The notes below the pieces were generated by a model. It was not told where the DNA came from. It did no database searches and worked only from the letters and a program-made list of their open reading frames with translations. A stretch of 64,000 nucleotides of DNA from Psammoneis japonica (taxonomy: Eukaryota): contig QPGO01000068.1 in the NCBI GenBank assembly GCA_008632985.1, positions 186,001-250,000 on the forward strand. Reading direction: 5' to 3'. Below are positions 9,093 to 38,900 of this stretch, one piece after another. The position numbers and the translations under genes were made by a program. Within the stretch, counting starts at the first letter, position 1. Every line of letters starts with the position of its first letter.

Positions 9093-9153
9093 CTAAAGAA
9101 CACTCAACGCACCCGCCGCCATTGCGTCGGTCCGGAGTCCGGAGTCGTCGGAA

Positions 9154-11697
9154 TAGGGTGTCCTACCGGTAGCACGCGCGCTGGTTGGTTGGTTGGCTCG
9201 TGGAGGGAATCCTGAGGGAATCCTGAGGGAATTCTCCTCCCGCGTAACTCGGACTTTTCAGTCTTACGGACCAGCCGTAGCCGCTGCATGAAAACATGCC
9301 AAAAAAACCAACCGCAGGGGCTACAGTAAAAATCAGTGCTCCCATTCAGTCCCGGATTTCTCGTTTTTGTCGCTCCAGAAAATGACAAAAAAAGAGCTTC
9401 GAGGTTTTGCCCACTGCCAGCTGCTGTGAGACCCAGGCCTTGAGGTGGTGCGGGTGCAAAAGTGTGTGTTTTCTACAACGCAGAATCTGGCCCACTTTTG
9501 CACCCGTGCCACCCCAAGCAACTTCAAACTGGCACGGCAGGCGCGCTCCGGATTGGCGCACAGACCATCGCCGTGGTGACAACACGGAGAACTTGTCAAA
9601 AAACCGCCGGAGCCGACGATGACATTGATGCGGTGGGTGAGGTGTCCAAACAATCATCGTTTCCAGCCCCATCACTGCAGCAGGTTTGTTGCACTGTCTT
9701 TCGTTTGGGGTTGTAAAGGGGCCATCAGATGACGGCAGTGAGTCGAGCTTCATGCAAACATGCCGTTGCACCCGTTCGTGATGCCATGTTCCATGCAGAT
9801 GATGCATCAACTCACCATTTGCCGGACATTCGGCACCCACTGAGTTAAAGTCCAAGTTTGTAAAAAGGCAAGTAAATTGAAAATCAAAATGGTGCCATCA
9901 ATGTGTCCAAGGCTCGCCAATTGTTGTCTCACTCAACTTTCTTGCCGCTGCAGCCAACTCTTGTTGTCTTTCCTGGCATGAACACATCGACGAATCCAAC
10001 ATCTTCGTCACATCCTCAAACCCATTTCATCAATGGCATTGACCAGACGAGCATTTTTGAAGACTTTGACAAAGCAGCTGCAGTGCGTTCAGCCAAGTGT
10101 TCTTGGGTGGGAGAGAGTCGGGCGGATGAGAGTGAAAATGAAGAATGAAGTTGGCGTGCATTCTAGAAAAAAGCAGCCAAACATGGTTGACAAAACACTC
10201 TGATGCTGTCACTCTATAGAATGACAAACAACAGTGAATGGAGCTCCTCCATGGCTTGTGCACACTCTAGATTGATCGCAAAGACACAAGTGCCAAATCT
10301 GAAAATGGGAAAGTGTGGCATGTGAGTGAGCATTCGTGGATTGCTTCACCCATTTGCAGCATGAAAGAGGTCAGATGCAGTTGCCACGAGGTCAAAGACA
10401 AATTAGAAAGCAGAACATTGCCACAAAATTGGTTTGTGATGATGTTGTCATCTCAATCTCGGTGTTGAGAACGGGTCAATTTCGCTTGATCGTGCAGTGA
10501 GTCACGTGTCTTGAATCCCGCATGACCCACTCGACTCGAAGTTTTTGGAAGTTTTGGCTAGACTTTGACCCCAGCTAGAGCCACAAAATGCACAAGATGT
10601 GAGCATTGTTGGTCTCATGCTCTTTAAACGGATGTCTTGCGAGAATGTGACAGGCACGCATTGTTCATGGCATCTGGCATTTCAAAACAGAGCCAACTTT
10701 TCGTGGAGCACCTTTTTCACACGGGCAAGTGTGAGGGACAATTTTCAGTGATTGGTCAGCAACTGACGTTCACCCCCATTCTGGGCCCCCAAAACGGTCA
10801 TGAAACTTGTGTCTGTGCATTGTCAGTCGATCGAGGTGGGCATTTGGTTAAAAATGGGGGGCCAATTTTTACACGTGGTGTCATGGAGCTGGGGCGGAAA
10901 GCTGCAACATTTGTTGTGTGCACTCAACCTGCTTCGACCCACTTGGTGAATGAAAACATCCAAAGTTTGCATTTGCGCTGGAGAAAGCGAGCCATTTCAG
11001 ATTTGTCGCAGTGCCACCAACAAGCTGCCGGTGCACAACGATCTGCCACCAAACTCGCAAAGCAATGACAGCTGCAATTCGGGCAATCAATTCCTCTGTC
11101 GTCGCAAAGTTGAAATGAAAGACGTCTCAACAGCATGTGGAACGGCGAGGACATCACGTTGAGACAGGGCATCATGCTGATGCCTCCAGTTCGTACGCCG
11201 ACATTCATTGCGATGAATGATGTGGTCATCAGCATCCATCTTCTCGGTGTCGACGCCGAGAATGCCTCAGCAGAGGATGCGGCAGCAAGGTGACAAAAAC
11301 AACCCCGTCAGCTGTGAGTGTCTGATGTGAAATTTTTTTTGTGACTGTCAAGGTGCTGGATTAAAATTTTATTCACAATGCACGTTGTACCTTGAATCAT
11401 GTACATGACGAGAAAAGGTTGTTATGACACTTCTTTAAATGATGTCCATGTTATGTGGTGTAACACATGCCGTGACCTTGACATGTTCTGTGTACAAGAT
11501 AAGACCGGATCGCATTCCACGGGACTTAACGGGACTGAGATGTTTTGACAAAACGGAAGCTCGAATCCACCGATGGAAAATCTTGCTTTGCACGGGCATC
11601 GATCAGATGGTCACACAGCTTCACAAACTCACGAACAGAAACGGAATCTTCGTCCGCGCCGCGCCGAACCAACCAGCGCGCGTGCTTGGACACCCTA
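9154..11697. mobile_element. Degenerate TIR DNA transposon (TAGGG...CCCTA ends; hAT-like termini or TA-flanked)
   Basis: Left TAGGGTGTCC(taccggt)AGCACGCGCGCTGGTTGGTT at 9154-9190 is inverted to right AACCAACCAGCGCGCGTGCT-TGGACACCCTA at 11667-11697. Interior is TpA/CpG-depleted; no 8-bp TSD visible; no recognisable transposase. Confidence 0.7.
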
Positions 11698-11761
11698 ATG
11701 CCGTCGCCTTGGCGGCTGCGCGTCGCACGTCGCCGTTTCGTGCGTTGAGTCCGTCAAATTT

Positions 11762-11945
11762 CTGTATATATGTACGTATTTATGTATACATGTATGTATG
11801 CATGTTTATGTTATTCAAAGCATTCATACACTAATTACTATGATATACTATTCATACTGTCTTTACATACGCCTACGTACAGTACTACTAATTATGGCGT
11901 ATGTAATAGTATGTATGAATATAATATATTACAAATATACGACTT
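11762..11945. repeat. Low-complexity TA-rich (TATG/TATA/TAC) tract
   Basis: e.g. tatgtatacatgtatgtatg, tactactaattat, ataatatattac. Confidence 0.7.
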
Positions 11946-12194
11946 TTATCTTGTGTAACGATATTCATGGATGAAGAAGGTATTTTAAATTTTATATTTC
12001 GAATTGAAAATTTCATTCAATCGATGACGAAAAATCATGACCACTACAAAATTTTTGGTGAAATCTTCGAAATCAGGGTTATGTTATTGGCTTTTTATCG
12101 GACGACGACTCCTCGCCCACGTTACTCACCATCGCCCCCATCGCAGAGACAGTTTTTGTTTCATTCTTCGGAGTGAGGGTCGCCGTGTATTCAA

Positions 12195-13424
12195 ATGAAA
12201 ACTTTCACTCGAACGATCCCACAAAGGGAAAAGAACGTGCCACGAAGATTTAAGAGGACGAATGGTCTTTTCTGTTCCGCTGCGATAGTGATCCTCCCTT
12301 CTCTAACACTAATTTATCAGGCAGCTCATTCTCGTTTTGCTGCAGACATAATAGAATTTCTAGAACCGGTTGCGGAGCCAGCTGACCCCAAAATAAGATT
12401 TCTTAGTATCTTGGAAGACATGGACGTGAATGTCTCGGCAATCGATGAAGATACTTTGAGACAACTTCCAACGTGGGATAGTGTCGAAGCGCTCTATGGC
12501 CCAAAGCCAATTGTTCACGGATTGGAGGTTTGTCAAGCATACCGCGACAAGGTTGCGGCGGTGGACCGACGTGTTGCTGTGTCGGGATTGTTCAATTCTG
12601 GGACCAACGCCCTCTACATTGTTTTGGAAAAGAACTGTCATATTCCCGAGCGCGTCAAGGAAGTAGGTCCGAGACAACACGGCATGGAGTGGCAGGTGAT
12701 TCTCTTATTTGAATTTCGTTACATGTTCGTCGTACTTGTCTTGGCTGATTCTTTTTTTTTTGTTGAACATAATCACGCTTAGGTGCCGTGGGGCAAACAC
12801 AGTCCTCTCCACTTTCGCTCAAACTTGACGGTACCGCGATACAAGAATCACTCGGATGCAAAGAAAGATCATGTGTTGCCGGTAGTTTCCATTAGGAACC
12901 CGTATGAATGGATGTTGTCCATGTGTCGTAACAGGTACGCGGCTTCTTGGTCACATAACCAGACGCACTGTCCTAATCTTATCGATGGTGAAGGGAACCC
13001 AAATCCGTTAAAGTTTAGAGTTGCGCCGGATACCTTCGTCCACTATGACTCACTGGCGCATTTATGGAATCAGTGGAATCGACAGTACTATGAGTTGTCG
13101 GAATACCCACGCCTCATGGTACGACAAGAAGACCTGATCTTTTATCCAAATGAAACAGTGGAAGCCATATGCACTTGTGCTGGGGGTGTAATGATGTCAC
13201 ACAACGATGGTAATTACACTGAAGGGCACTTTCAATATTTTTTGGGAGAGGCCAAAGACCACGGCAAGGAGGAAGAGCGGACAGATTTCATGAAGGCCTG
13301 GATAAAGTATGGTCAACCAACAAACTGGAGTAAGTTTGAAATTGGTGATACCAAATATGCTCAAGGGGTTCTCGACAAGGAAATTATGGCAACATTTGGC
13401 TATTCTGATCGTCCGCCGCGGTGA
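12195..13424 (+). CDS. Sulfotransferase-like protein, paralog B (intron 12696-12782)
   Basis: GLFNSGTN, WQ|VPWGKH, VSIRNPYEWMLSMCR, VRQEDL; intact spliced frame. Confidence 0.82.
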
Positions 13425-14517
13425 TTCATTGCCCCGTCACGGCTTAGAATGAACGACGTGTGGTTCTCAGTGGCAAACAGATTCAGTCTTAGCTATTTGT
13501 TTGGTCAGATATGCTCAAAGTGTTCGACTGACTTCTTATCCATGGACAATGCATGGTATTCCTTCAGCGATCAGATTTTAGTCGTACCAGGTAGCTATCA
13601 CAATAGCAGCAGTCGTAGCTATCACAATAGCAGCGCTCGAGAGCCACAGAAGTGCATCGTTTTCAATCCTTTTGTTTGAACCGCGTTTGCCTCGATCGCC
13701 TTTATCTTGATGAGATCACCGGAGATGAATTTAATGCGCAAGAGGGCCGCACCGGTGAGGTGAACCCGCCCGGCCGGGATCAATCGGATCGCCCGACGGT
13801 GCGGTCATCACTGCAGCCTCAGGTCACCGACTTTAGAATGGGCAAGATGACGAAATGGTGACGACTCTTGGTCCGTTGAGAATGGCACCACCAGCTCAAC
13901 TGGGTTTGCCCCTGCAGAACTTCCATTTCCAAAAATGAGACATGGAACCACCACCACTGATGACTTGTGTCTCAACACGCCAGTGGCATTCAGCACTGTG
14001 ATCAATGGCATCATCAGAAGCAAACCATTGCTCAACATGGAGACATTTTCCATTTTTGAAGGTTGGAGGGAAGTGAGCAATGGTTGGAAAGAGGTTTGAC
14101 AGATGTGGAGTTGTCAGAAAGTGGTTTGTCATGTCAACCGGTGGGCACAGCGACCAATGGAGGGAAGGAGGGAGGGAGGGAGATGTTGAGAACTCCAACT
14201 GGACAAAGACCAGTGTGACTCTTCTTGGTGGTTTGCAGCTTCCAAAGGGCTCAGCTTCTTTTTTTTTTTGTGAATTCCTTCATGAAGCAATGTGGCCATT
14301 GGGGGACATTGCCAACCCCAACAACCTCAAAACTGTGGCCGTCCTTTTAAGCTGAAAAAAGATTGCAAATTTCAAGCTTCAACATTGCACTGGGCTCTCT
14401 GCAGTCACATGTTCTCTGCCTGGGTGTGAGCATCTTTTGACAGCCCCAAGCCAACAAAATCTCAGGGGGGGGGGGGGAAGCACATGCAAAAAAAGAAGGG
14501 CAAGAAAAGGCAGCAAA

Positions 14518-14964
14518 TGCAGCATGCATGCAGACAAAAGGTTGTTTTTGTCACGCCCTTTGTGACATTTAAAGGCTGCAACACGTCGCCGTGATGCACC
14601 AACTCTTGTTGGCAGCTGTGTGTTGCACTCCTCCCCATGTGTCACGCGTCCACACGGCTCTTTGCCAATGTGTGCTGACACTGCACGGTTTTGGCGGAAC
14701 AGTGTGGGCACGTACGAAGGAACGTGCAGAACTGCACAGAGTTTTGCGCGTTCGACAGTGATCAACGTTGCTGCAGACAACTCCCACTCAGGGTTTCGAA
14801 CCCCTGGCCTCCTGCCCAATGGTTGCGATGAACCACTCCGCTGTGAATTCACAGTGCAGCATGCACGCAGACAAAAGGTCATTTTTGTCACGCCCTTTGT
14901 GACATTTAAAGGCTGCAACACGTGCCGTGATGCATTGACTCTTGTCGGCAGCTGTGTGTTGCAC
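14518..14964 (+). repeat. ~110-bp direct repeat (14518-14628 and 14855-14964)
   Basis: Shared cagacaaaagg..tttttgtcacgccctttgtgacatttaaaggctgcaacacgt...ggcagctgtgtgttgcac; most differences are at TG/CA/CG positions. Confidence 0.9.
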
Positions 14965-15901
14965 AAAGCCCCCCCCCCCTGGGATCGCTGCAATGATTTG
15001 CTGGAGCAACAGATGGCGGCACTTTGCCTTGCAATCATGTTGTTTCTTGGAGCACATTGGTTTTGGTGACTCACATTGTGGCCCACATTTTGCGCGGGGT
15101 CTTTTGACAACTTGTTCTGCACCTTTCAACCTTCTGTGCTTAAAACAACTGTTCTTTGAGCACCAACAAGCAGGGCATGCCCATCAAATGTGTGCAAGGT
15201 GGCTGCAGTTGGAACATTTGCAAAACTCTGCTTGACAATGTCAGGTTGCACCACGTGTGTGTCACGAAACATTTTGCATTTGCGCAGCCTGGACAAACAT
15301 TGTGGCAAATGTGCAGAAAGTCTTGACATGTCTGCATTGTTGCTGGGTGACATCCTGGCTCCTGTGCATCAGCGAGTTGGGGCGCATGCCAAGAAATGGC
15401 AAGTTTGTGCTGTGCCTGCATTTCTCAAGCATCTTCTGATGGCACAGCTTCCAAAAATGCAGTGCTGGCTGACCAGCTGCACCTTGCTTTCCAGGTTGTC
15501 AACCCCATCTACAGTGCACCAGGTGGGCCACAACTGAGTGCTGCGTGTCATTCTTGTTTTTGCTGGCAACATCATGGTCATCTTCCAAAAAAGTTTGTTC
15601 TTGTTTTTGCTTCTCTTTTTTTCTTCACACCAAATGTCTTTGGTGGTCAGCTGCCAAGATTTTTTGTTCTCTTTTCTGGCCTCTGGCGTGTCCCATTCTG
15701 CCCTTCTGTTTGTCATGCTGGGAGCAAAACTTGCCACACTCAACATCTTTTGAAAAAGAGATCATCATTCAAGTGCGTCTCTGCTTCCTGGAAAGCAGAA
15801 AAAAGAAATCCCAGGCAAAGCAGCTGCCACATTCTGGGGATGTTGCAACTTCTTTGTTGGGTGTCAAAAGCTCAAGACACACAATTGCACCACTCTGTGC
15901 A

Positions 15902-16395
15902 AACCCCACTTTGCAAATCAGTTGACACAGATTGATGCTTGGAAAGCAGCCCATTTCTGGTTTCTTGATGTCCTGCACATCACAAGATGCATTTCCACTG
16001 CCCCTCTTTGGTGGGTTCATGATGGCTTTTTTGTTTTTCTGAAGCACCGCCCACATTTGCTCCTCCTGTGCCCATCTTTTGCACAACAAAAGAGCAGTCT
16101 TGCAGCTCTTTAATTTGGGAGAGCAAAAAATGAGGTGTGGTTGGGGCATGAAGACCATTCTGTGAACCCCACTCTGCAAATTAGTTGGTGCAAATTGGCA
16201 CTTGGAAAGCAATGCATCTCTGTCTTCAGCAGCCTGCACATCACAAAATGCACCACCGCTGCCCTTCTTTGGTGGGTTCACATTGGCTCTCTGTTGTTAA
16301 AGCAGCACATTGACTCCTCCCATGCCCACATTTTGCACAACAGAAGAGGGGTGGTCTTGCAACTCTTCAACTCATGAGAGCAAAAAATGAAGTGC
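15902..16395 (+). repeat. Diverged tandem repeat, unit ~260 bp
   Basis: aaccccact.tgcaaat.agttg...cctgcacatcacaa.atgca...ctttggtgggttca...gagagcaaaaaatga.gtg occurs twice. Confidence 0.85.
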
Positions 16396-19076
16396 AGTGA
16401 GTTGCAGCATGAACAAACTAAAAGTGACTTCTTCCAGCCCACTTCTCTTCTTTTCTGAGCCTTTCTCATGAGTTGCCAGATGATGCTCTGTGTGAGCAGC
16501 AGAGCTGTCCCAACCCCCCCCTCCCCAAGATTTTGTTCTTCTTTTTGTTTGAATCTGTGGCATTGATTTGTGAGAAACAAAGTGTTGCACTTTCAAGTGT
16601 GTCATTTGCTCTGCTGTGCTCAGTCTGCACTTGTCAATGCTCAATTCTTTCAGCCCCCCCCCCCCAAATGCCTGTCTTGCACTCCCCAAATTGTGTTCAA
16701 GGCAACTGGAGCATCATTTTGTTGGGAGGAAACTTTCAGAAAAAAGGTTCCTTTGCCTGCTTTTCTGACAACCACAACAACCACAGAGTTGCCTTGCTTT
16801 TGTGCATTTGCCAAGCCAGCATGGCTGTGCTGTTTAGCTGACACCAAGAAACTGCTGACTCAAGAACAAAACCATCACAAAAATGTGCCTGGTGACAAAG
16901 ATTTTGTCACAGAAGACACCATCAATGTGCAAGCCATGCAGGCAGCTGTTGACTTGCCCAGCTGTGCAGAACCTTCCTCAGGCCAGATCCTTCCTCATGC
17001 TCAACAGCCAGAGCCAGCAGGGGGGGGGGGGGGCATTTCAAAGTCACCAGCACTGGGCTGTGGGACATTGTGTGCTGCTGCACCAAGATGAAAGATGTGC
17101 TTGACTTTCAATTTGCTGCCAAACAACTGGATGCTCCACCCAGCACCATGAGTTTCCCAACACCCCTGACATCCTTTTTGAAGAGCTTGCTGCATCTGCT
17201 CAAACTTTTGGCTGGAGCAAGGAGGTTCTGAGCACTGACATTGACAAAGCAAGGCTCCTCCTCTTCAAAAAGCAGAAACCAAAGGCACACGCCTGTTGAA
17301 TGTGGTCAAATCTCAGCTGAGTCACAGCTTGCATGGTTTCAGCTTTCAGGCATCTGCCTCCATGTCAAGATGCCAGGGGTGTTCACCAAAGCAGCTGCCA
17401 ACTCTTGTCTGTCTTGTCCAGGCTCCAGAGGGCACCACTCTGGGGATGAACCTCCAAGGTTGTCACAAACTGTTGACAACAATGAGCATTTTGTGAAAGG
17501 CAGAAGTTGACTCCAGTGCTGCAATGTCTGTCACCTGGGACTGGGTCAGCAGCCTGGGTGCTCACATGACCATTGTTGAGATGGTCAGATGACTGGTGCT
17601 GGGGCATTCCAAAATCATGCCAAAGCTGCAGAAAAATGCTTGGCACTCATGGCTGCTTGCTCCAGCTCCAACCTGTTGAACAATGCACTCAAAACACCCA
17701 TCCCACAGGTGTTGATGAAAACTTTGCAACTGCTTCCATGCTAAAATGCACAAGAGCACCAGCCATGAAAATGGACCTGATGCTGACCCTTGGGCACCCA
17801 CACCACCACATCTGAGGCAGAGAACATCATGCACCAGATCCTTGCAGAGTTGAAAAGTGGGTGGCTTTTGCTGAGGAGCCACAAACCATTGTCACACTTT
17901 GAGCCAAGACAGAAGCTTTTTGCAAGGCCAAAAACATGTGACAAGTGGTGATCATCAAAAGCAATGCCTCAGCTTGCCTCGCGTTCCTTCCAAGAGCAAC
18001 CAAGCCAAAGGAAAGGGTTCTGACAATCACAGCAAGCACATCAGAAGTTCCAGATCCTGTCAAATGGATGCAAGAAGCCTTTTTTCTATGGCAAACATGA
18101 CACCCAGCTCCAGAAAGGATTGACAGTCTCATTTGCCAAGGCTGTTGATTGTCATGTGCACAAGCGCACAGCAAGTGCCATGAGCACTGGGCTTCTCAGA
18201 GGACAAAACCATGTTGGGAGCTGCTGTGCTCTCTGGGAAGAGCGCACAGCATGCCAAGTGCTGCCTTGTGGCTGCTCTGTTGCATGTGCTCCACTCTTGC
18301 AAAGTGTCTTTTGTGCATTGACAGAGCTGCGGCAACTCCTCTTCCCATGATGCTAAAACTCGCTGGCGAAATTTTGCTCGCACAGCCAACACAGCTGAGT
18401 TTTGCAGCACACCCCAATTGCCAGTGTGTGACCACTTTTTCTCCAAACCCAAAGACTCTCATTGTGCAGCTGAAAAACACATTGTGCCGTGCCCCTTCTT
18501 TGCCACTGGAAATGAGAGGTGGTGCAACATCAAGCCAAGTGGCGTGTTTGTGGCCTTGCTTGTTGATTGGTGCCTGGATGAAGACTTCTGTGGGGCAACC
18601 AGGACGGACAAGTGTGTCACAGCAACAGATCATCCTTCCAGGTTGCCCATTGGCACTGCCGATCAACAAACCGGCATCTTTACTAAACAGCTGTGACTGC
18701 CAAAGGAGCTCTTCTTTTAAGCTCCGTCGTTTGCCATTCGGCTGACGTCCATGTGTCATGTTGTGAGTTGTGAGGCATGTATGTAGGGCCCTACTGTACC
18801 GTATGTGACCACCACAATGAAAATGTCAAATGTCAGATCGACCGTCGCCCATAATTGTTGGTCCTATAGCCCCCTAATTGTTCAAGACATCTCGAACATT
18901 TATTGGGAAATCCAATACCGCTTCATTAATAGCTCACTTCTCAACATTCCGACGTTGTCCCCGTTTAGTAGAGTAATCACTAATGCATGAGCGCTGCTAC
19001 TAACTGAACTCAAAGAGTCAGTTTTGTTTCATATTTGGAGTGAGGGGTGAGGGTCGCGGTGCATTCAAAACTCGAG

Positions 19077-20306: not shown

Positions 20307-20639
20307 TTTATTGCCCCGCCATGGCTGAGAATGAACGACGTGTGGTTCTCAGTGGCAAACAGATTCAGTCTTAGCTATTTGTTTGGTCAGATGTGCTCAA
20401 ATAGTTCGACTGACTTCTTATCCATGGACAAAAGCTTGGCATTCCTTCAGCGCTTAGATTTAGTCATAGCTATCACAACAGTAGCGCTCGAGAGTATTAT
20501 AAACATCGTTTACACGCTTCTTTTTCGAACCTCGTTTTGCCTCGATTGCTTTTGTTTTGACGAGATCACAGCAGACCAACACAGACGAAGTCAAAGCTCA
20601 AGAAGGCCGCACCTGGTGAGGAGAACCCGACCGGTGTCA

Positions 20640-22767
20640 GCGCCGGACGAGAGCTTGGGGGACTCCTACGATGCGTTTTGATTTGGATCTGTGTCGCTGT
20701 CCACAGATGGAACAACTCTGGCTCGTATGACGACGGCATCAGAAGTGCCAGCAACGCTGGAACAGAGATCCATGCAAGTGAAACAATGCGTGGTCGAAGC
20801 CAGCTCGTACTGTCATTTTGTCTGCTGTTCTTGAATGTCTCAAAAGCTTCTTCCAGTCCACCAAGAAGGAATTGCAAAAGTCCTGGTGGACACTGTTGTT
20901 CGGAGCAGCCAAGGCAACAGGACCGCTGATGAAATTGTGCATCTGCACATGAATCACATGGATGTTGGTCAAACTGTGTGCACTGGACCAACAAGCAAAA
21001 TGAACCCTGATCCAACAGCTGAAGGGATCACTGCCTGACTGTGCTGCAACAGATTGCAGCAGGAATGATCATGGACATGAGAAAAAGAAGCCAGATTGCA
21101 AAAAAGTTTGCACAAGGGCGGGTTGCAGTGACAAGACATGTTTTCTTACTTTGGCAAGCATTCACAACAATGATGTCAATTGGCTGGACTAGATGAGTGG
21201 CAAGAGGTTGTTTCAAGATGTCAACAAGTGTGACTCACATTGTTTCTTGCCACTCTTCTGCACCTCCTTTGAACAATGGATGGGAGGGAGGACAGCAGCC
21301 ACCTTTTTGGAGTGAAACATTTTGCAGTGTCACCCTCCGCCAGCTGCACTGCAAAAAAATTGTTTTTTGTTCTCGTGAATCACTCTTGGTGGCACCAAAA
21401 ACTCATCTTGTTTTTTTTTTCTGTGTCAGCACCCAAACACTGTTCAAAAGGGGAACAAGGCACAGGACCAGATGCAAAGAGCCTGTCTGGAAGCAACACA
21501 CAAGTGGGACATGCATGACCCCATCATCAAATGGCAGCATGGCAAAAAACACCATTTTTGCTTGTTTGTGCTGAAAAGCCACTGCAGCTTCCTCCCACAC
21601 CCACGCTGCATTTCATCATCATTCAACAGGAGTGTGCATGCTGGTGGTGCTGGCTAACTGGAGGTGTGCCTGTTGAGCAGCAGCACATGGACAAGAAAAC
21701 AGAAAACACAAATCAACACACAGCAGAGCTGAGAAGAACATCTCAATCTTTCACAACTTGCTCCTGACACTTGCACTGCCAGTTTCTTCCATGGCAGCAG
21801 TGCACATCATGCATCAGAAGTGTGCGAGAGATGAGCTGTGTGGCAGCTCATGCCTGGTTGCAAAACACAAAAGGAGTGCACAAAGGCAGGCAAAAGAGGC
21901 ACCACTGTCTTTTGGGGTGGCAATTGTGTTGAAAAAAAAAAAAGAGTGCTGAGATTGAAAGCCACTGTGAATGTGATGGGTGCTCACAATGGGGGTTGTC
22001 AGATGCAAGGATTTCAAATGTCAGGTGTTGACACATGCGTGGCTGTCAAAACTTTTGCACACTTGCACAAGAGAGGCAGACAAGGAGACACAGAATTGAC
22101 CCAAAACACCACTTCATGGATGGAGTGAACAAAGCACACAAAACCTTCAGCTGTTTTGCGCGGCTGTCAAAAAACATCTGCACACTTGCACTGACAACAA
22201 GAGGTGCAAAATCTGCTCAAAGCACCGTGCATTGTAAAACACACAAACAAAGCAAAACATTTAGAAGCTGATTTCATGCACAACTGAGGGAACATTTCAC
22301 CTGCATGTTTTCAATGCCAGGCTTGTCGCGCCAAACTTTCAACATGCCACACGAAGGTGTGCCCCTCCACACTGACCTGCTGCCGTCACCAATGAGGGTG
22401 TCTGTGAGGAGATCTCAACCTGCCACTTTAATGATTGTGACCCAAAAACACCTGCTGCCAGTGAGCCACTCTTGTTGAGCCTTGCTGTTGGGTGCTTGGT
22501 GCACAAAAAGCTTTTTGCATTTGTCATGACGAGGAAAAGGGTTTCCTCAAGACATTTGACAACAAGAACAACAGCTGCGCCACTCAGATCAATGCATCTG
22601 ATTGGGCAGCTGCTCTTTGCCACTGTCTCTACTTTGCTGTTTCTGTGATGTACAGCAGAGTGGTGTGATTCTCGCCCTGCTGTTGTTTCTCACAGCACAG
22701 TTCATGATGTCTCCAGGCAGGGGTGTCGAGGGAGATCCCAGAGGTTTTGGCACATGTGCTGGTTGCT
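20640..22767. mobile_element. Degenerate TpA/CpG-depleted repeat sequence, probably an older element interrupted by the 22768-28885 element and resuming ~28894-29050
   Basis: Same dinucleotide signature as the other islands; no recognisable protein. Confidence 0.5.
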
Positions 22768-23197
22768 CATCTGGGACACCAACAATCCAGGTGTCGCACC
22801 AGCCATCAAGATTTCTTGAAATAAAACCCGACATTTTCTCCCTTTAATTTGTCAAGTCAGCTTTTCTGAAATGTTCAACATCAAACATCCATGTTCCTCA
22901 ATTTGGCTGTTTGCCCCCCCCCATCCGACAAGCCTCATGTGCACATTTAATGCCATTTTAATTTCTGGATTGTGTGTCAATCAACTTTCTGGATCAAAAT
23001 CGTTGCCTGCATCCGTCAATCTAGATTCTAATTGTTTTCTCAATTTTCTCTCCCTGCCCATTCCATCCTTCCTTCCCATCCATCCGCACGTTGCATCTCC
23101 ATGTTTCTGCCCTCACCACATCCCCAAGTGATTGTTGCTGCACCCACTCTTTCCTTTCAATTCTCTTCTCAACTCCTTCATCTGTGTGCACAGGCCA

Positions 23198-24300
23198 TGT
23201 CATCTGATGGTCTTGTTTGTCCATGGTGCAAACGAACCGGTTTCTTTTCCGAACGTGGCCTCAGCAGGCACATCACAACTAACTGCCTCCGTTCTGCCAT
23301 TTCCACCAAGTCTTTCAGTTGTCCTTGTTGCGGACAACGTGGGTTTGACTCTGAAAACAACGTGCAGCATCACCTGTCTTGGCACTGCACCGCAGCATCT
23401 GGTCTCCATCCCCCATTGACACAGTTGTGCCACACAACCCAATTGTCTTCTTCATCCGGCAGAACATCTCTTTCCTCTCATCCTCTGGATTCTGCCTCCG
23501 TCGGCTCCCTTGGATCCAACACCAACAAACCCAAATGTCCCCATTGCCGTGTTCCCTTTTCCAACATCACCCTTCATCTACAGAAGTGCTTGCCCTGCCG
23601 TGAAAAGGAGGAAATGTCCCTTTGTCTGCATGCCGCATCTTCCACTGCCGCCCACACACTTCCCCCTCCAGACGACGACCATGATGAATCACTGGACGAC
23701 CATGATGATCCTGCTGGGTTTGGTTTCTCCGACGACGAACCCCCTCCTCCCCTCCCCGAAGTCCTTTGGAATCCAGCTCCATCTCCTCCCACACCAACGG
23801 ACAATTCTTCTCCAGCTTGTCCTCCCTCTGCCAGAAGTGGACTGCGCCCACCCTCCATCAGACGCTCTGGTTGATTGCGTTCAGCCGCCAATGCTGACCG
23901 CGTTCATTTGCCCAATGTGTGGGAGAACAACACAGCCTCAATTTGGTGTCAAGGCTGTTTCCTGTGCCAAACGGGGCCAGATGCACCGGCGGGGGACAAT
24001 GCCCAGATGGATCATTGGTCAACACTGCAGGTTGAGTGGGGTGGAATGTCATCGGGAGAGAAGTGCGATGTGTCGGATGGAAAAGAGATTCATTGGTTCC
24101 ATTTTGGTGATGTGGCCCAACAGGTGAGGGACTGGGTGTGATTCTTTGGGGTGGGATCATTTTGAGGTTGTTGTTTTGCAAAGGGAATGACAAGGCCACG
24201 GAAGACAAGAAATGGAGTCACCCAAATGATGTCTGTTCGCTGCTCAACATGAGTTGATCAGTGACTTGGACAAGATTCGAGGAGAATGTGGTTTGCTGTG
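23198..24300 (+). pseudogene. Degenerate TE ORF with three C2H2/C2HC zinc-finger-like motifs and a Pro/Asp-rich linker
   Basis: CPWC..FSERGLSRH..C, CPCCGQRGF..QHHL..HC, CPHC..F..LHLQKC; downstream frames broken. Confidence 0.55.
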
Positions 24301-24353
24301 GGAGATGCACTTTATGTCACGACACTGTACAGGCTGGCATCAAGTGCACAAGC

Positions 24354-24880
24354 AAAAAAGTGGCGCCAAAGGCATTCATCACCAGACACATGTGTCAACA
24401 AAAAACTGATGCCAAATTCTTCTGTTGACAAATGTGTTTGACAACAGAAAAAGTGATGCCGAATTGCTTTGTTAACAAACAGTTGTGGCAACAAAAAAGT
24501 GACACCAAATCACTCTGTTGACAGATGTGTGCATTGCCAAAAAAGCAACAGTTTGTTTGTGGTGCGGAATGTGCGGTGGATGGAAGCTTTTGCTTTGTGT
24601 CTGCTGCTGTGGTGATGTGAAAATATCTCACATCATCACTGACAGGATTGTGAGCAACAAAATTGTTTTCTGTGCTTTTGAGATAGCTGGGATGACCCAT
24701 TTGGTGAGATCATTCAGCAAACAGGATCGACGAAGATCACATCACACGTGACCATTTACGAAAAAAACGTCTGTGGTGCACCCGACAGATGGACTGCCAT
24801 TGTCAAAACATCACACGGGACTGTTTACGAAAAAAACACCCGTGGTGCACACAACAGACAGACTGCCATTGGCAACACAT
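24354..24880 (+). repeat. Internal tandem repeats: ~46-bp unit x3-4 (24354-24530) and ~70-bp unit x2 (24740-24880)
   Basis: Repeated aaaaagtga.gcc.aat...tgttgaca and cacacg.gac..tttacgaaaaaaac....gtggtgcac....acaga..gactgccattg. Confidence 0.75.
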
Positions 24881-24913
24881 GTTTGGCGAGAAAGCCATTT
24901 TCGTTGGAAAGCA

Positions 24914-25774
24914 ATGGGTGCAGACTTTTGCTGGATTGGGTCTGTTCCACTGAAAGAAAAAGACTGGGTGCCATTTGATTTGGCAGAACAGGCATTTTCA
25001 GAGAATGGCGCGGAAGTGTTCTGTGAACGGATGCCGGAAATTTGCCGTTGGCCGACAACATCATGCCAGAAACATGGCAAGTTACTGACACACCCGGGCA
25101 AAATGAAATCTCATGTTGTCAAGAGTGAGAAGGCGGGGTCCAAAGAAAGAGAGCACCAGGAAAGAAAAAAAGGCCACTTGCAAAAATTCAAAACACCACC
25201 ACCCCTGCTCAACAAGATGACAACACTTGCAAACAAGGCACCAAGTGGGAAGGGAGAAAAGGAAGGACACTGTTTTGTTGGTGAGTTTGCCATCAACAAA
25301 AAGGAAAAGGCAGAAGGTGTTGGGTTGGCAGAAAAAATGTTGGAGTTAATTCCTGGCTTTCCCCTGGCAGGTGATTCAAGCAGAAAGATGTCCCGACACA
25401 CAGCAGCAAACGCTCCTGCTTCAAGTTCAAGATCTAACTTCTGGTCAAAGGGGGAAATTCATCACGATTACGTGGAAACAAAATTGTCACCTGGTGACAA
25501 AATTTTCACCATGTTTCTGTTCCTCGATGACACAATGGAGCACAATGGTGCAGTGGAGACATGGCCGGACAGTTGTGAGGCAACATTGAATGAGAAGGAA
25601 CGCGAAAGACACTTGGTCAGGTTGGGTTTGGAAAAACAATCGCTGGTTGGAGAAGCAGGCACTGCATTTGTTTTTGATGCAAGAATGTTGCACCGAGCTT
25701 TGCCTGACAAAACGAATTCGGATCGAAGGAACATGGCATGTCCAGTCCATAATTTTGACGTGGCAAGCATGTGA
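24914..25774 (+). pseudogene. PhyH-like (phytanoyl-CoA dioxygenase family) 2OG-Fe(II) oxygenase carried inside the transposon; mutated
   Basis: HHD (HxD), TMFLFLDD...NGAVETWPDS, GTAFVFDARMLHRA, T.SDRR match the PhyH double-stranded beta-helix signature. Confidence 0.7.
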
Positions 25775-25899
25775 ACATGGCAAGAGTGTGAACAAGCATG
25801 TGTTGGAATGCAAAACTGGCAAAGTGGCAAGTTAACACAGGCGCAAAGCAGGTTTGTGTAAAGGGCCAACCAACAATGCATTGCTTGCATGGACGACAG

Positions 25900-26376
25900 T
25901 CACATCACAAACAAAGTGGAATTGCAAAGTTGCCCACTTTTGGCAGGCTTGAATTTACGTTTGATGTCAGACCCTGGGTCGTTCCCAGTGGAATGCCCAG
26001 TCTCCACGGCATCGTCTCTTTTCTTGGTGCACTTGTGAAGCAGGTGCCCATCGACACCGCCTCCCCACAACAGATCGTCTGGACAGGCAGGAACAAAGAA
26101 TGCTTCGTGCCTCCATTTGTGCGCACAAACACAAAACATCACATCCAGTGAAATGACAATGGTGCCTTCAGGACACTTGTTGGACAGTGTCTCCTTGAGT
26201 TGGTTCTGTGTCGCGTTGTTGTCAAAAAGCATTCGCCCATTGCAGTTGTTGAAGAAAATCTTTAAGTTGTTCAGACGGTGCAACCGACACACAGCATCGT
26301 CTTCGGAGAGGAAGCCCTGATTGATCAGGGTCGGAAAGCGACTGGCACTGTTTTGTGCCATGTGGCATTGCACCAC
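25900..26376 (-). pseudogene. Unknown degenerate TE-borne ORF
   Basis: 158-codon open frame with protein-like composition inside the TIR element; no family recognised. Confidence 0.25.
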
Positions 26377-27358
26377 TGAGAGCCAAGATCATGACGGGGA
26401 CGGTGGAACTCGATGCTGCAGGCATTGCAGGCAGGAACAAGCAGACGACAGGCAATCGCAAAACCGCCAACACCACCACCAACGTCGAGGAAATTAAAAC
26501 GGCTTCGAATTTGTGCCGCAAAGAGAGCGGGGTTACAAATGACCTTGGCGGAGAAGGCAAAGCTTGCCGTGCCGCCGTGTGATTCCACACCACCACCAGC
26601 AAAACGACCAATTTGATCATCAATTGGCGGCATGTGATTGTGACAGAGGGAACACGTGTTCCCATGACGGGAACGACTCACGACAACCACATCTTAGAGA
26701 CAACAACACACTTCAGTGGACATTAAAGTGGACTGGAAAATTTGGGCAACAGAGAGAGCAGTTGGACAAACATGGTGTCAGGGAAGCAGAGGGAATGACC
26801 CATTAAGACAGGGACAACAAATGGGAGGTTTGACACGACTTGACACACCAAATGAAGCAGATGTTGCATCCAGAAGGAAGCGCAATGCATGCATCAACAT
26901 GAGGAGATACAACACATTGTTTGGCATTGATTCAAATGATGTGGCAATCTTCATTGGTGCATTGGATTGGCTGACAAAGGTGCACAATTCAAAACAGTGA
27001 AACGTTGACAGAAATGCAAACATGGGGTTGGGGATGAGCACTCAAAAATGATGCAAAGACCTGTTTGAATCGAGAGAGGACACGCGAGCAACGACAAAAC
27101 CGAGAAAATCACATGCAAAAGTGCGTTCTTTTCACAACTCACCTTTCACAAAGCGACAGGAAAGGACGGAAGTTCCAAATGAGAGGAAGCCATTGGGAAG
27201 GTAAAAAAAAAAATGGAGGATGCGGTTCTCACAGGAGCAACGGAGGGAGGAAGTGTGACTTCCAGTGGCAAGTGAGATTGAGAAAGGACATGACAAAGAG
27301 TTGCTGATGAACTGACATGGTCATTGGATTGATCTGTGTGGTGTCACATGAAGTCACC

Positions 27359-28468
27359 ATGAGTCCTGCGGTGGCGGCCTTGTTGCATGCACAAAGAAAC
27401 GAACATGGGGAACTGAACAGATTCCAGCATGCAGGTGGCGATTCAAGTTCGGCGGTGACTCCCACAGAGGGATGTCTTGTGTTGGATCGTGCACCAGCGG
27501 TGGGCAAGAAATTGACAGCATCGATGTTGACTGAGGTCATCAATGAGAGTGTTTGGCCATGTCGCAAGTTCACAATCTTCGATCATGAACTCGCCGTGGG
27601 AGGAGATCACATGAAATTGGTTCTGCAGGAGTTGAGGAGCATGGCGTCTTCACCGGAGAAGTTCTGGGAAGAATGCAAAGAGGTGTTCAGGACCAAACTC
27701 AACCGAAAGAGGAACAATGTGCAGGACAACATTGGGAGGAGAATGACAGGCAAGCAGATGTGTGCGTGCCGGTGATTGTGTTGGAGGCGATTGTCCAACG
27801 GGATGAGTGTCTCTTCCTTTGCCATTGTCTGTGCAGTTGCTGCTTTAGAGGGATCGCTGGTGGCTTACGAAGACTTGATAAAGGGAAGAAATGACAAGAA
27901 CACATGCGCGTGGTTCTTGGAAACTGTGGTGCCGATGGTGGCGGGACAAGCGCAGTTTGGTGGAAGCACAACCGACATGCTTCAGGAATGGCTTTCGGTT
28001 TCGTTGGAGGCGTTTGCTCTGCCAGTGTACTTGAACTGCTGCAACAAGGTAAAGGACATGGCAGAGAAATTGGAAAAGGAAGAAAATGTTGCAAGGAGAA
28101 GAAAGCCAACTGTGAACGATGCTGCTCCTGCAAAGTGCACAGCGCAGGCAGCGGGGGAATCGGCAAAGAGGAACCAAGGATGGAGCAAGGAGGGGATCAA
28201 GAAGCACAATGATCTGTGTCAGTGGGTGGTGAAAGACAGAGAGAACAACCAGGGATTCGGTGCATGGTTCAAGGACAGAAGGCGAGAGAAGACAAACTTG
28301 TCTCAGGAGGAAAACAAGAAACGCAAAAGAGAGGAAAAAAGAAAGGAGAGAGAGGAAGGATGGGCGGCGCCAATGGGAGAGGACCTGCCATTGCAGGCGG
28401 TGGATGCAGGCAATGGAGCGGTAGCAAATGCCGCAATGGCCACCAACCAAACTGGTGTGCAAACGTAA
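27359..28468 (+). pseudogene. TE accessory protein, two exons (mutated intron 27750-27836)
   Basis: ORFs 27317-27775 and 27776-28468 join in phase across an 87-nt intron. Motifs KFWEE..F..KLNRKRNNV, SLEAFAL..Y.N, GWSKEGIKK(H)NDL and a charged coiled-coil tail. Confidence 0.6.
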
Positions 28469-32259: not shown

Positions 32260-32421
32260 CTAGGTCATGTGGAGGACATCACCTAGCCTGTTGCTCTTGA
32301 CTTGATGGGCTTTCCCCTTGGAATCCTTCTTGGCGTTCTTCTGCTGGTTGTTCTCGAAGCGAAGCGGCTTGGGCTGCTGTAGCTGTTTAGGATTGGACTG
32401 GTGGTTATCTTTGTTAGGCAT
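32260..32421 (-). CDS. Possible small basic protein (53 aa)
   Basis: ATG..TAG ORF MPNKDNHQSNPKQLQQPKPLRFENNQQKNAKKDSKGKAHQVKSNRLGDVLHMT with C/G-ending codon bias; possible 5' UTR splice acceptor just upstream. Confidence 0.35.
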   Translation of the reverse strand: MPNKDNHQSNPKQLQQPKPLRFENNQQKNAKKDSKGKAHQVKSNRLGDVLHMT

Positions 32422-36130: not shown

Positions 36131-36489
36131 GTTGATTCTCGCGAGGGAGAGCAGGTGCATTCACTTTTTCTTTTACTACCAGCTACGATAAACCGTGTCA
36201 GATCAGTCACGATATCGCAATTTTTTGACCTTTCTTGTCAAAAGCTTAAGTCTGGCTGTGTTTCTTATGTCTTCCTACTTCTATTTTGCTGTCTTCGAAT
36301 TGTTTCCCATCGTCGATTGACGACTCACTCGGTCTCTCCCCTCTCCCGCCGACTGACGCGACCAAGACCAACAACGAAGTCGCGTGCGTTCTTGGATGTT
36401 CCTGATAATTTTGTGTGCTCTCAACATACGGTAGGGCCCCTACCATAACTACGTACGGCTGCGCGTTACGCGGGTCTTTACGCAATGAC

Positions 36490-38900
36490 AACAACCAACT
36501 CGTCGTTGGCGTCAAAGGCGGCCTTGATTACCTCGTCCATTCTGCTCACGCCAACATTGAGCGCTGCCTTTTTTCGGCCTCCTCTGCCAATGCCTTGCTC
36601 CTCTTGGACCTTGTCAACATGTTCAATGAGGTCCCTCGCGATGCATGCAGTGCCAGTGCTGATGCCCTTGATTTGTCACCTCAGGGGACCGAAAACACCC
36701 CTCGCCTGCTTCTCCCCTTTTTTCGATGTGGTGCATCAGAACTCCAAAGGTGTTGCCAGCCCAACTCATCCTAGAGCTCCTTCATGCAAGAGGAGGGCTT
36801 TGCTCAAGGCTGTCCCCTTGGCCTGGTCTTTGCTTGCCTTGTTCCCCCCCCGCCACTCACTCCGCCCTCTCTCAACCAAGAACTCCTTGAATGCCTCCCC
36901 TCCCACTCTCCCACTTCTGTCAGTTTCCACATTAATGATGCTCATGCTTTTCTTCCCCACTCCTTCACACCTTGGTTCCTGCAACCCCCCAAGACTCTTG
37001 GTGCTCCCCGTGGCATCAAGCTCAACCTGTGCAAGACCGGGGAGGAGTTTGTTCACTTTGGATGAGAGAGTGGCTGGAGAAAGTGTCGGAAAGGAAAGAG
37101 CTGACAAGTGCACAAGAACCCAACCTGTGTCACAACTTGAACCCTGACATCCCACCTGATCTCTTGCTTTGGACTTTTCCCTTTCAAGATTCCCCCCTTG
37201 CTGCCACCCATCACTTCCTTTGCTGTGCCCCGCTGTTCACACCAACCACTTCCTCCTCACTGACTCACTCACTGGCTCACTGACTCACTCACTGGCTCAC
37301 TGGCTCATTCACTCACTCACTCACTGGCTCAGGGTTCACTCACTGGCTCAGGGCTCACTCACTGGCTCAGGCTCACTCACTCACTCACTCACTCACTCAC
37401 TCACTCACCATTGCTTTTCTCTCTGCTTTCCTTGGTGGCTTTGGCCTCTGCAATCCTGCTGCTGCTGTCATCTCCTCCTTCCTCATGACTCCACTTTGCT
37501 CCTTCTGCTTTGCCATGCACAGAGCATGACTCCCATCTGGCAACTCCCTCAAACTTCTTCCCAAGGGTTTCTGTCTGTCTCTCTGTTCCTGGAGCAACCC
37601 CAATGCCCACCTTCACCTTTTTGCATTCTCTTCCAATGCTGTGCTTCCACCCCCACTTCTGACTCCTCATCATTCTCTCCACTTGTCAAGTTCATCACAC
37701 TCCCCGGCCTGGTGCATCCCCTCTGTCATGCTTTCCAGCTGCACATCACCAATGCTGCCCTTGCCAATGCTCCCCTGAATGTTCAAGCTGCCCTGCTTTC
37801 TCTCCTGTCTCCTCTCACCAGCCTCCTGCTCTGCTCCATCTCCAGCTGCTCTGGTGCCACTCTCTCAGCTTCTGACGGATGTGCCATTGTGGCCCAGACC
37901 AGCACAAGCTTTGCCTCCCTGTGCTGCCCCCATTCCTCACAGGCACCCCCCTGCTGCTCCTGTGGTCATGCCTTCCTTGACACCTGTGGTGACCATGCTT
38001 TTCTTGCCTGCAAAAGCAATCACAAATCCAAGTTGTCTGACAGCACTCATGACACTGTCTTCATCATCACCCAAACCTTGGGCCCCCCCTTGCCAAACTT
38101 TGCAACTCACCCAACAATGTTCATCTCAAGCCTGCAAACCTCCTTTTAAATTGCCCCCTCTGCTTCTTGCCCGGCCAACGTTGGCATTGCCACCCCTCCT
38201 CCTGCTGCTTCCATTGCCACCCCCTCCCACCATCACTGCATTGCTGTTGATGTCACTGTGCCCAAAGCTCCTCCTTGCCCTTCTCCCAGTCTGCCTGCTC
38301 CTTCTTCTCTGGCTTTAACTGAGGCACACCACACAAGTGCGAGGTCAAAGTTTCTTGGCCCTGTTGCTTGCTCCCTTGCCACCCAGTCTCTTGGTGACAG
38401 TGGGGGGGTCTTCTTTCTTCCTTTTGCCATTGATCACCTCAGTGGTCTTGGTTTCTTCTTTCATCACTTCCTTTTTGGCTCCTTGCTCCTCCTCTTCTCT
38501 CTGCTCCCAAACCAAGCCTCCTTGGTCTGATTGTTCTGCCCTGCAACACTCTGACACCCTGCACTGCCTTATGCCATGCCCTTGCTTCACCATCCGCTCT
38601 TCTTTTCTCCACTGACTCTGCCTGGTGCCAGCTTGCTACACAGACCATTTTGTTGGCTCTCATCACTCTTCTGCTCCCTCCCAATGGGCCACTCAGATTC
38701 TTGGATGCAACATCGTCCACCATCTCTACGTCCACACCCTTCGATTTCTCTCTACCCTTCGTACAGATGCTTCCGCAATCCCTTCTTTGACCCTTCTTTG
38801 GCTCCCGCTCCTGCAGCCATTTCCATACCTCCTCTCGCTGCCTCTCCATCCTCCATTGACTGGGCTCTCTAACTCTTTACTTAATAATCTCTACATACCA
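36490..38900 (+). mobile_element. 5'-truncated, degenerate non-LTR retrotransposon with restriction-like endonuclease (CRE-like)
   Basis: RT remnants QLVVGVKGG, LLDLVNMFNEV, QEEGFAQGCPLG, F(H)I(N)DA (=YxDD), GIKLN..KT; CxCG..LD.CGDH.F.C knuckle; (C)PA(N)VGI and AVDVTVP (=RPAD/DVT); FLPFAIDHL.GLG. Confidence 0.85.
37257..37408. repeat. (TCAC)n microsatellite with TGGC interruptions inside the retroelement
   Basis: tcactcactcactggctcac... visible directly. Confidence 0.95.

Follow-up and report, generated by a model that had tools for sequence, protein, structure and literature searches.

What could remove almost every TpA dinucleotide from long blocks of DNA while the genes beside them keep theirs? 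The question is raised by a 64-kb window of contig QPGO01000068.1 of Psammoneis japonica (the whole stretch of DNA that was analysed), in which four islands have lost TpA and CpG and gained TpG and CpA. We interpret these islands, with a probability of about 0.72, as the product of an in-place, domain-limited hypermutation of TpA to TpG or CpA on top of CpG decay, of the kind described in Bigelowiella natans (Mettrop et al., bioRxiv 10.64898/2026.01.13.699255).

The window was analysed by a 1-kb profile and a 300-bp scan, and blocks with no more than three TA per 300 bp were pooled as islands for counting. The 300-bp scan delimited TpA-poor blocks at 10501-11300, 13701-18700 (19 TA), 20501-28500 (51 TA) and 36501-38700 (7 TA), which belong to the following islands:

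Island A, 9328..11361: moderately TpA-depleted repeated DNA, with 16 TA in 2,034 bp
Island B, 13640..18680: strongly TpA- and CpG-depleted DNA between two paralogous genes
Island C, 20512..28421: composite TpA-depleted block
Island D, 36480..38569: TpA- and CpG-depleted, C/T-rich DNA with a CACT-type microsatellite (37262-37408)

Pooled over 16,000 bp, the islands retain 83 TA, whereas the density in the flanks would give 639. The observed/expected ratio (o/e) of TA is 0.08 in the islands versus 0.58 in the flanks, and that of CG 0.37 versus 0.99, while CA (1.60 versus 1.13) and TG (1.72 versus 1.14) are raised. The remaining dinucleotides stay at 0.85 to 1.12 times their flank values. Per kb, the islands lack 34.7 TA and 33.6 CG (68.3 together) and carry an excess of 27.8 TG and 37.4 CA (65.2 together); CpG decay contributes about half of the gain in TG and CA. 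Since the conversions of TpA and CpG offset each other, the GC content is unchanged (0.49 in the islands versus 0.48 in the flanks).

The limits of the depletion are sharp. Island borders are less than 100 bp wide, for example at the TA pairs 13628 | 13703 and 18354 | 18681 of island B, and the borders of island C are marked by TA at 20511 | 20667 and 28050 | 28422. Genes lying 150 to 350 bp from the islands have a normal TA density, and 32 of the 34 TA-free gaps of at least 200 bp in the window fall inside island blocks.

The effect on coding capacity is considerable. In six-frame translations, Tyr makes up 0.15% of the residues in the islands versus 2.08% in the flanks, Cys 5.78% versus 3.56% and His 4.82% versus 3.10%. 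The density of TAA and TAG is 7.0 per kb versus 34.0 per kb, and many frames are therefore open in the islands. A previous sequence-only reading of this DNA had described four islands poor in TpA and CpG and rich in TG and CA, and had attributed the abundance of Cys- and His-rich open frames to the loss of stop codons; both descriptions agree with the ratios and densities given here. Its hand counts of 18 TpA in 13801-18775 (3.6 per kb) and 23 in 12181-12780 (38 per kb) were exact.

A low TpA content could be an inherited composition or the result of mutation, and copies of the island sequences elsewhere in the genome bear on this point. Contigs from the single sample that contains this DNA were mapped on 9000-28999 at a likeness of at least 85%; the summed contig depth obtained in this way is not a copy number. 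At 718 places the mapped contigs vary from the window, and the 40 best supported differences were examined. The window has TG or CA where other copies have TA in 15 of these 40, and the reverse, TA in the window opposite TG or CA, occurs in none. CpG-type differences (12), other transitions (7) and transversions (6) account for the rest. In island A, 8 of the 23 displayed differences in 9555-10164 are TA elsewhere and TG or CA in the window. A high-copy element of island B shows this polarity. At seven of its positions the window copy has CA or TG, and TA makes up 33 to 82% of the family depth, with 82% at 14653:

14518..14964: high-copy element of island B, a 226-bp core between two direct repeats of 111 bp
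14653, 14664, 14666, 14709, 14726, 14746 and 14817: the seven TA-polarised sites of this element
15889..16413: tandem duplication inside island B, two units

Repeats within the islands provide a second line of evidence. When their units were compared, one unit had CA and the other TG in 12 of 37 adjacent double differences, while in repeats that lie outside the islands this was so for 1 of 30 (Fisher p=0.004); such pairs are expected when one ancestral TA has been converted twice independently. The units of the tandem duplication at 15889-16413, for instance, share 74% of their nucleotides, and 91% when the sequence is coded as purines and pyrimidines, and this kind accounts for 6 of the 20 adjacent double differences between them. 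Likewise, the homology between the 3' flanks of two paralogous genes reaches some 130 bp inside islands B and C, and copy 1 has TA at 13703 and 13732 where copy 2 has TG and CA. Judged from these comparisons within one genome, the TpA depletion is mutational and not an inherent composition.

A further comparison was offered by the only recognisable gene in the islands, a frame within island C:

24752..25771, + strand: 340 codons, zinc knuckle and PhyH-like 2-oxoglutarate (2OG)-Fe(II) oxygenase

The frame matches the Pfam family PhyH with an E-value of 1.1e-05 and 26.3 bits (cut-off 22). Its protein has 86 relatives at E≤0.001 (best 8.7e-17), and the alignment with them extends from the N-terminal Cys/His cluster as far as the HxD...H core. 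The family consists of proteins of about 250 amino acids with an N-terminal Cys/His cluster and a 2OG-Fe(II) oxygenase core and is common in marine metagenome contigs. We analysed 34 metagenome loci encoding relatives; because several are near-duplicates, they represent fewer than 34 independent cases. The TA o/e is at least 0.58 in 28 of them, 0.48 in one and 0.17 to 0.39 in five (L008, L011, L013, L024 and L032), and TG+CA is raised in these five. As far as can be judged from these loci, the PhyH-like family is not TA-poor by nature. The environmental contig L013 (501-5000) contains a TpA-poor domain (6-14 TA per 500 bp) that stops beside a PhyH-like gene of normal TA density (16-27 per 500 bp), a further example, from another organism, of a domain with a sharp limit.

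Three of the depleted loci, L008, L011 and L032, are 94 to 97% identical, and the nature of the changes can be read from their differences. Between L008 and L011 (5.4 kb), 63 of 91 isolated transitions pair TA with TG or CA, and 34 of 48 double differences pair CA with TG. TA, TG and CA are all present across the three copies at 7 sites. Within the trio, transitions per comparable site amount to 6.1-6.4% at TpA, 1.2-1.6% at CpG and 0.3-0.6% elsewhere; they are thus about 12 to 15 times commoner at TpA than in other non-CpG contexts, and in these depleted loci the TpA process runs 4 to 5 times faster per site than CpG decay. The changes at TpA are transitions almost without exception, with TG or CA as the partner of TA in 64 of 66, 22 of 24 and 15 of 16 cases in the three pairwise comparisons. 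The sequence-only reading had proposed a second, TpA-specific A:T to G:C process besides CpG decay, confined to the islands, and the polarised copies, the CA/TG pairs and these site rates bear this out. Neither of the findings it named as contrary to its proposal was made: other copies are not equally TpA-poor, since they carry TA and 28 of the 34 loci are normal, and the excess of transitions at TpA is pronounced.

The change is symmetric with respect to the strands. TG and CA are about equally frequent in every 500-bp bin of the islands, and runs tests on L008 and L011 gave 44 runs where 42.5 are expected and 32 where 25.5 are expected, so that the strand order is random. This lack of strand coordination speaks against both a processive action along exposed single strands and the editing of a sense-strand RNA.

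The surviving TA are unevenly distributed among flanking contexts. TTAA accounts for 23 of the 83 TA left in the islands and is kept at 0.81 of its flank density, while CTAA/TTAG, TTAC/GTAA, CTAG and GTAC are kept at 0.13-0.32 and ATAT, GTAT/ATAC and CTAT/ATAG at about 0.02. Similarly, 37 of the 55 TA retained in both L008 and L011 lie in YTAR (Y, pyrimidine; R, purine), and at 28 of 34 YTAY/RTAR sites the changed strand is the one that reads YTAY. The changed A thus seems to be followed by a pyrimidine, with a preference of T > C ~ G >> A, a ranking that is drawn from small counts and assumes the ancestral composition.

Taken together, these observations would be accounted for by two processes acting in the islands. 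One would be ordinary decay of CpG to TpG or CpA. The other, faster, would be a TpA-specific change of A:T to G:C, giving TG from an A of the top strand and CA from an A of the bottom strand. It would change single sites on either strand with equal frequency and in no strand-coordinated order, would extend over entire domains, their present single-copy parts among them, and would halt within about 100 bp of neighbouring genes. It would be near saturation, sparing mainly TTAA. The chemistry would most likely be an enzymatic deamination of adenine in DNA at 5'-TA with a preference for 5'-TAY. A deaminase of the cytidine deaminase (CDA) fold, for example a relative of ADAT2 or TadA, is a candidate agent; it could be guided by a chromatin or small-RNA mark, and its role might be defence against mobile or foreign DNA. 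No deaminase gene is present in the 64-kb window.

Among the alternatives, the one that survives best, although we consider it unlikely, is a modification of the thymine in 5'-TA (preferably 5'-RTA) instead of the adenine. A 2OG-Fe(II) dioxygenase would produce 5-hydroxymethyl- or 5-formyl-uracil, which would pair with G and lead to a change from T to C. A change from TA to CA on one strand is a change from TA to TG on the other, so that all the sequence evidence fits this route equally well, and the TAY preference becomes RTA on the opposite strand. Oxidised thymine is mutagenic, and the only recognisable island gene encodes a 2OG-Fe(II) oxygenase with a Cys/His cluster. However, this oxygenase is of the PhyH type and not of the TET/JBP type, its gene sits on the target DNA and not in the host genome, and most of its relatives are found in DNA with normal TpA.

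Less likely again is error-prone repair in methylated chromatin, an option raised by the sequence-only reading, in which T:G mismatches arising by deamination of 5-methylcytosine (5mC) would attract a low-fidelity polymerase of the Pol eta type that miscopies A:T pairs at TA. TpA loss does accompany CpG loss in every island, and Pol eta prefers the motif WA (W, A or T). Nevertheless, AA is not depleted (o/e 1.30 in the islands versus 1.17 in the flanks), and in the depleted loci A/G differences amount to 0.52% after an A as opposed to 6.1% after a T. A polymerase would also produce transversions in addition to the transitions counted above. The depth of TpA loss, moreover, does not follow that of CpG loss. 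The CG o/e of the island windows ranges from 0.04 to 0.71, and the TA o/e lies between 0.02 and 0.12 whether CG o/e is 0.04 or 0.7; TpA is lost to the same extent at 23-28 kb, where CpG loss is mild (CG o/e 0.45-0.71), as at 15-18 kb, where it is extreme (0.04-0.20). Because the changes are transition-only and AA is untouched, an error of the Pol eta kind is disfavoured.

We regard it as improbable that no mutation process is involved, that is, that the islands have an inherent or selected TA-poor composition or that base calling, sequencing or assembly failed at modified bases. In its favour, the repeat family at 22.3-28.9 kb shows no displayed difference of the TA type, and the sole run containing this DNA may represent the assembly's own data. 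Against it stand the copies in the same genome that carry TA where the window has TG or CA, the normal TpA of 28 of the 34 related loci, the paired CA/TG differences that mark independent changes, and the recurrence of the signature in independent metagenome assemblies. In addition, contigs of run X1 match the window without substitutions over three stretches (13481-14269, 14924-18905 and 20363-22796), with at most one 1-base gap per contig. The least credible alternative, ADAR-like A-to-I editing of element RNA with a 5'-U preference, fixed through reverse transcription and reinsertion, can draw on one very high-copy embedded element and on the resemblance of A to G changes after a 5' T to the neighbour preference of ADAR, noted in the Discussion of the preprint (bioRxiv 10.64898/2026.01.13.699255), but it is contradicted by the equal change of both strands within a single copy, by single-copy surroundings that are as depleted and limits that follow domains and not elements, by the absence of a reverse transcriptase domain from all 137 island frames, by a relative of the island gene beside Mutator-type DNA transposases and by the in-place origin of the B. 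natans changes, which that source describes in mutation-accumulation lines.

Several observations weigh against an adenine-directed, in-place hypermutation. By sequence alone, a changed A in 5'-TA equals a changed T in the 5'-TA of the opposite strand. The 40 differences examined are a small share of the 718 variable places, and the polarity rests on the repeated parts of the islands, the single-copy parts having no relative by which they could be polarised. In the repeat family at 22.3-28.9 kb, none of the three displayed differences is of the TA type; its copies were either each mutated in place or derived from a master copy that was already TA-poor, and the data fit both. When L024 was compared with relatives of normal TA content, TA was the least conserved dinucleotide (3 of 14 kept), and of the 11 changed TA in this small test 5 had become TG or CA and 6 something else. 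Concerning the flanking bases, a pyrimidine follows the changed A in 8 of the 15 polarised sites of the window, and over 16 flank contexts the gain of TG+CA is not related to the loss of TA+CG (r=-0.25). Since the gains do not track the losses, the flanks represent the ancestral sequence poorly, and the sparing of TTAA could therefore partly reflect ancestral composition. Finally, mutation accumulation in the diatom Phaeodactylum tricornutum showed a GC to AT bias, with no such regions reported in the available text of that study, which also mentions methylation of the genome (PMC6604790); the TpA process may therefore not be universal in diatoms.

How does this signature relate to known systems of hypermutation? 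Repeat-induced point mutation (RIP) of ascomycete fungi converts CpA to TpA, enriches the DNA in AT and needs duplicated sequence. It resembles the process described here in being a dinucleotide-specific, transition-only hypermutation of non-genic DNA with sharp limits that destroys coding capacity. The direction is nevertheless opposite, as seen from the TA, CA and GC values of the islands, and about 6 kb of the depleted DNA are at single-copy depth, whereas RIP requires duplication. Deamination of methylated CpG, which is reported for silenced transposable elements of diatoms, cannot remove TpA. The depletion of CpG in the islands, offset by a gain of TG and CA, and the 12 CpG-type differences among the 40 displayed are what 5mC decay would leave; the TpA loss, in contrast, is deeper than the CpG loss, besides being the faster of the two per site in the related loci. 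The tRNA adenosine deaminases ADAT2/ADAT3 and TadA, the last of which has given rise to DNA base editors, have a natural substrate with a U directly 5' of the edited A, which matches the 5'-TA target, although their action on duplex or chromatin DNA is conjecture. AID/APOBEC enzymes convert C to U in DNA and ADAR converts A to I in RNA as a defence against viruses and retroelements, both strand-coordinated and metazoan. The underlying logic, in which bases of an invader are deaminated within a short context, would be common to them and the islands, but the change observed here is A:T to G:C in DNA without strand coordination.

The closest counterpart is that of B. natans. The 'reverse RIP' proposed by the sequence-only reading matches it, and the statement of that reading that no description of such a process was known has to be corrected in this respect. 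According to the main text of the preprint (Mettrop et al., April 2026, bioRxiv 10.64898/2026.01.13.699255), integrated DNA of nucleocytoplasmic large DNA viruses (NCLDV) and virophages undergoes de novo TpA to TpG/CpA hypermutation. Of 302 nuclear mutations in mutation-accumulation lines, 231 were located in a single NCLDV insert and a single virophage insert; 230 of these 231 were A to G or T to C, and the GC-biased ones were all on TpA. The rate in the inserts was about 6e-7 per site per generation, about 1000 times the background. The genome contains 124 clusters of TpA-poor, CpA+TpG-rich 1-kb windows, and a DNA adenine deaminase was proposed, with an ADAT2 homologue as candidate. The TpA-poor coding sequences of B. 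natans also include domains of transposable elements (TEs), and a viral target may therefore not be a defining feature. Within the open-access and bioRxiv papers searched for TpA hypermutation in diatoms or stramenopiles, this preprint was the one relevant description.

The islands share with B. natans the dinucleotide target, the two products and the transition-only spectrum, the restriction to non-host DNA with normal flanks (for the single-copy parts of the islands a foreign origin is an assumption) and the long-term footprint of clustered TpA-poor, CpA+TpG-rich 1-kb windows. Applying the preprint's cut-offs (TA o/e at most 0.43 and CA+TG o/e at least 1.52), 14 of the 64 1-kb windows qualify, forming runs at 14001-18001 (5 windows) and 21001-27001 (7 windows) with single windows at 10001 and 37001; these cut-offs call for runs of at least three windows and were calibrated on B. 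natans, not on P. japonica. The differences are equally clear. B. natans is a rhizarian (chlorarachniophyte), whereas the host genes of the window are diatom-like (stramenopile). The TA o/e is 0.02-0.12 here but 0.45 in the NCLDV insert of B. natans. In the window, the depletion affects repeats and single-copy intergenic DNA that carry no viral hallmark: none of the 137 island frames has a viral or capsid domain, and the gene family of the 24752-25771 frame gave one weak match in IMG/VR viral contigs (30 residues, E 2e-4). CpG decay proceeds alongside, while the term CpG is absent from the main text of the preprint, as are the sparing of TTAA and the preference for TAY.

What, then, do the islands contain? 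Among 137 six-frame open reading frames (ORFs) of at least 70 amino acids, no transposase, reverse transcriptase, integrase, viral or capsid domain was detected in Pfam at E≤0.1; the PhyH match stood alone among sub-threshold noise. Self-comparison revealed no long terminal or inverted repeats in the islands, although heavy mutation could mask them, and comparison of the islands with one another, both as nucleotides and in purine/pyrimidine coding, gave only short internal repeats. The contig depth is at the level of unique DNA (about 55-78) over 13669-14335 and 15003-22339, and it is 20 to 1000 times higher at 9.0-11.0, 14.3-15.0 and 22.3-29.0 kb. Because of this contrast and of tens of distinct variant contigs, the latter parts are repeated. 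The islands are domains that contain repeats together with equally depleted single-copy DNA, the latter amounting to about 6 kb (13669-14335 and 15003-22339 minus the gene at 19.0-20.4 kb, at a likeness of at least 85%). They consist of repeat-rich intergenic DNA that is probably silenced. The description of the hypermutation as TE-restricted therefore holds only in part: repeated DNA is indeed present, but the 137 ORFs include no transposase, reverse transcriptase or integrase, and the single-copy DNA is depleted as well.

A similar qualification applies to the idea that Cys and His stand where Tyr is expected. It holds as a matter of composition only; in the PhyH-like protein, the two conserved Tyr columns of the family are occupied by His and Phe. 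The protein has 1 Tyr in 340 residues, and its homologous part of 260 residues has the lowest Tyr and the highest His content among 15 aligned proteins. Its matches in a protein atlas are PhyH-like, mostly in bacterial clusters, with scores below 0.9. At locus L010, a relative is flanked by two Mutator-type transposase ORFs and a SET-domain ORF; the neighbours of other relatives are unrelated, and none of the large ORFs near them is matched in the window. The gene could be a passenger or a chromatin- or DNA-modifying gene of mobile elements.

The four islands differ in the degree of depletion and, among islands A to C, in contig depth. Depletion in island A is weaker than in the others (1-kb window at 10001: TA o/e 0.14, TG+CA o/e 1.62), and the summed contig depth is 1258-3614 at 9.0-11.0 kb versus about 61-78 in unique DNA. 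At the start of its zone lies an 80-bp palindromic hairpin (9438-9519), which scores 32.8 and 30.5 bits on the two strands against a mir-548 model derived from miniature inverted-repeat transposable elements (MITEs; gathering score 90) and is probably a MITE-like inverted repeat. A TA-rich microsatellite (11765-11797) persists about 400 bp outside the island.

Island B contains 72 CG and 1097 TG+CA in 13701-18700, and its windows at 14-18 kb have a TA o/e of 0.02-0.07 and a CG o/e of 0.04-0.44. No Pfam domain was found in it. Its depth is single-copy (55-66) except at 14336-15002, the span of the high-copy element, where the summed depth reaches 63,762 versus about 60 for unique DNA. The direct repeats of this element, 14518-14628 and 14855-14964, are 93% identical. 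Contig joints going back by about 261-324 bp were observed, which suggests that the element may be tandemly arranged elsewhere in the genome. A stretch of its core resembling a tRNA T-arm by eye (about 14780-14850) received no support from ARAGORN or Rfam (E≤1).

In island C, the TA o/e is 0.04-0.12 and the CG o/e 0.09-0.71. The depth is 66-67 up to 22339 and 1212-4901 thereafter, and repeat depth goes on to about 28.7-29.0 kb. The stretch at 20.5-22.3 kb is thus at single-copy depth and that at 22.3-28.4 kb is a repeated element; loose contig ends at 22847/22848 mark a junction between elements. Island D has 25 CG in 36501-38700 and is free of TA for 1,214 bp (36933-38147), the window at 37001 having a TA o/e of 0.00, a CG o/e of 0.09 and a TG+CA o/e of 1.81. 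A homologue search with its longest frame (329 amino acids) found none.

The genes around the islands are those of the host and are nearly intron-free:

Host genes of the window: MINDY deubiquitinase, PPR protein, Asp/Asn beta-hydroxylase, hydrolase, thiamine pyrophosphate (TPP) enzyme and sigma-70-type factor
12154..13492, + strand: unmutated neighbour gene, with paralogues at 19044-20306 and 28809-30338

The named best matches of the MINDY protein are all from diatoms (Triceratium, Odontella, Thalassiosira, Seminavis, Grammatophora and Cyclostephanos; 36-46% identity, unnamed matches up to 58%), and those of the TPP enzyme include a Bacillariaceae genome. By these matches, the host is a diatom or closely related ochrophyte of a sparsely sampled lineage and not Bigelowiella. 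The neighbour gene at 12154-13492 has a normal TA density of 38 per kb. Its family comprises at least four genes without a Pfam match (12145-13773, 19014-20634, about 28809-30338 and 6847-7873), of which those at 12.1, 19.0 and 28.8 kb each adjoin a TpA-poor island; the copies at 12145-13773 and 19014-20634 are 86% identical over 1,656 bp. In run X2, 12154-12693 and 12781-13492 are contiguous on one contig, from which an 87-nt GT..AG intron near 12696-12782 can be deduced. The contigs of run X2 are transcript-like and leave most of the islands uncovered; they were not used as evidence of expression. An ORF at 33234-34343 carries an RNase H-like RVT_3 domain (E 8e-15) at normal TpA density and is either a host gene or a young, unmutated remnant of an element; it is followed by a tandem duplication of about 295 bp (34260-34796). 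A scaffold gap of 96 N (56833-56928) lies within the region of an Na+/H+ exchanger-like gene.

For C to T changes, as in RIP and APOBEC, it is established that targeted hypermutation can serve to defend a genome. A natural A:T to G:C counterpart on genomic DNA has been reported once before, in the 2026 chlorarachniophyte preprint, and the window represents a second lineage with TpA hypermutation, in which the depletion is far deeper than in B. natans. New in the present case are the diatom-like host, the near-saturation, the targeting of both repeats and single-copy DNA, a separable CpG decay, the rule for flanking bases and the strand-independence. It is conceivable, although we hold the idea tentatively and would not count on it, that a TpA-specific DNA-editing defence is shared by stramenopiles and rhizarians and is old within the stramenopile-alveolate-rhizarian (SAR) group. 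Such a defence would mark whole chromatin domains rather than repeats, because single-copy DNA inside a domain is rewritten too; it would outrun 5mC decay and be saturating, with TAY preferred and TTAA spared. If this is true, the TAY/TTAA fingerprint could help to trace the enzyme, which would be a naturally occurring adenine editor that acts on double-stranded genomic DNA.

The TpA process is separable from the decay of methylated CpG, and the flank motif together with the constraint of strand symmetry would aid the search for the enzyme, which is relevant to genome defence and to the engineering of adenine base editors. Pipelines for repeat and gene annotation will overlook elements that this process has rewritten, and the rewriting of TpA would account for unannotatable 'orphan' DNA with six open frames. 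That a diatom-like genome shares the footprint with independent marine metagenome contigs suggests that the process is widespread in marine protists.

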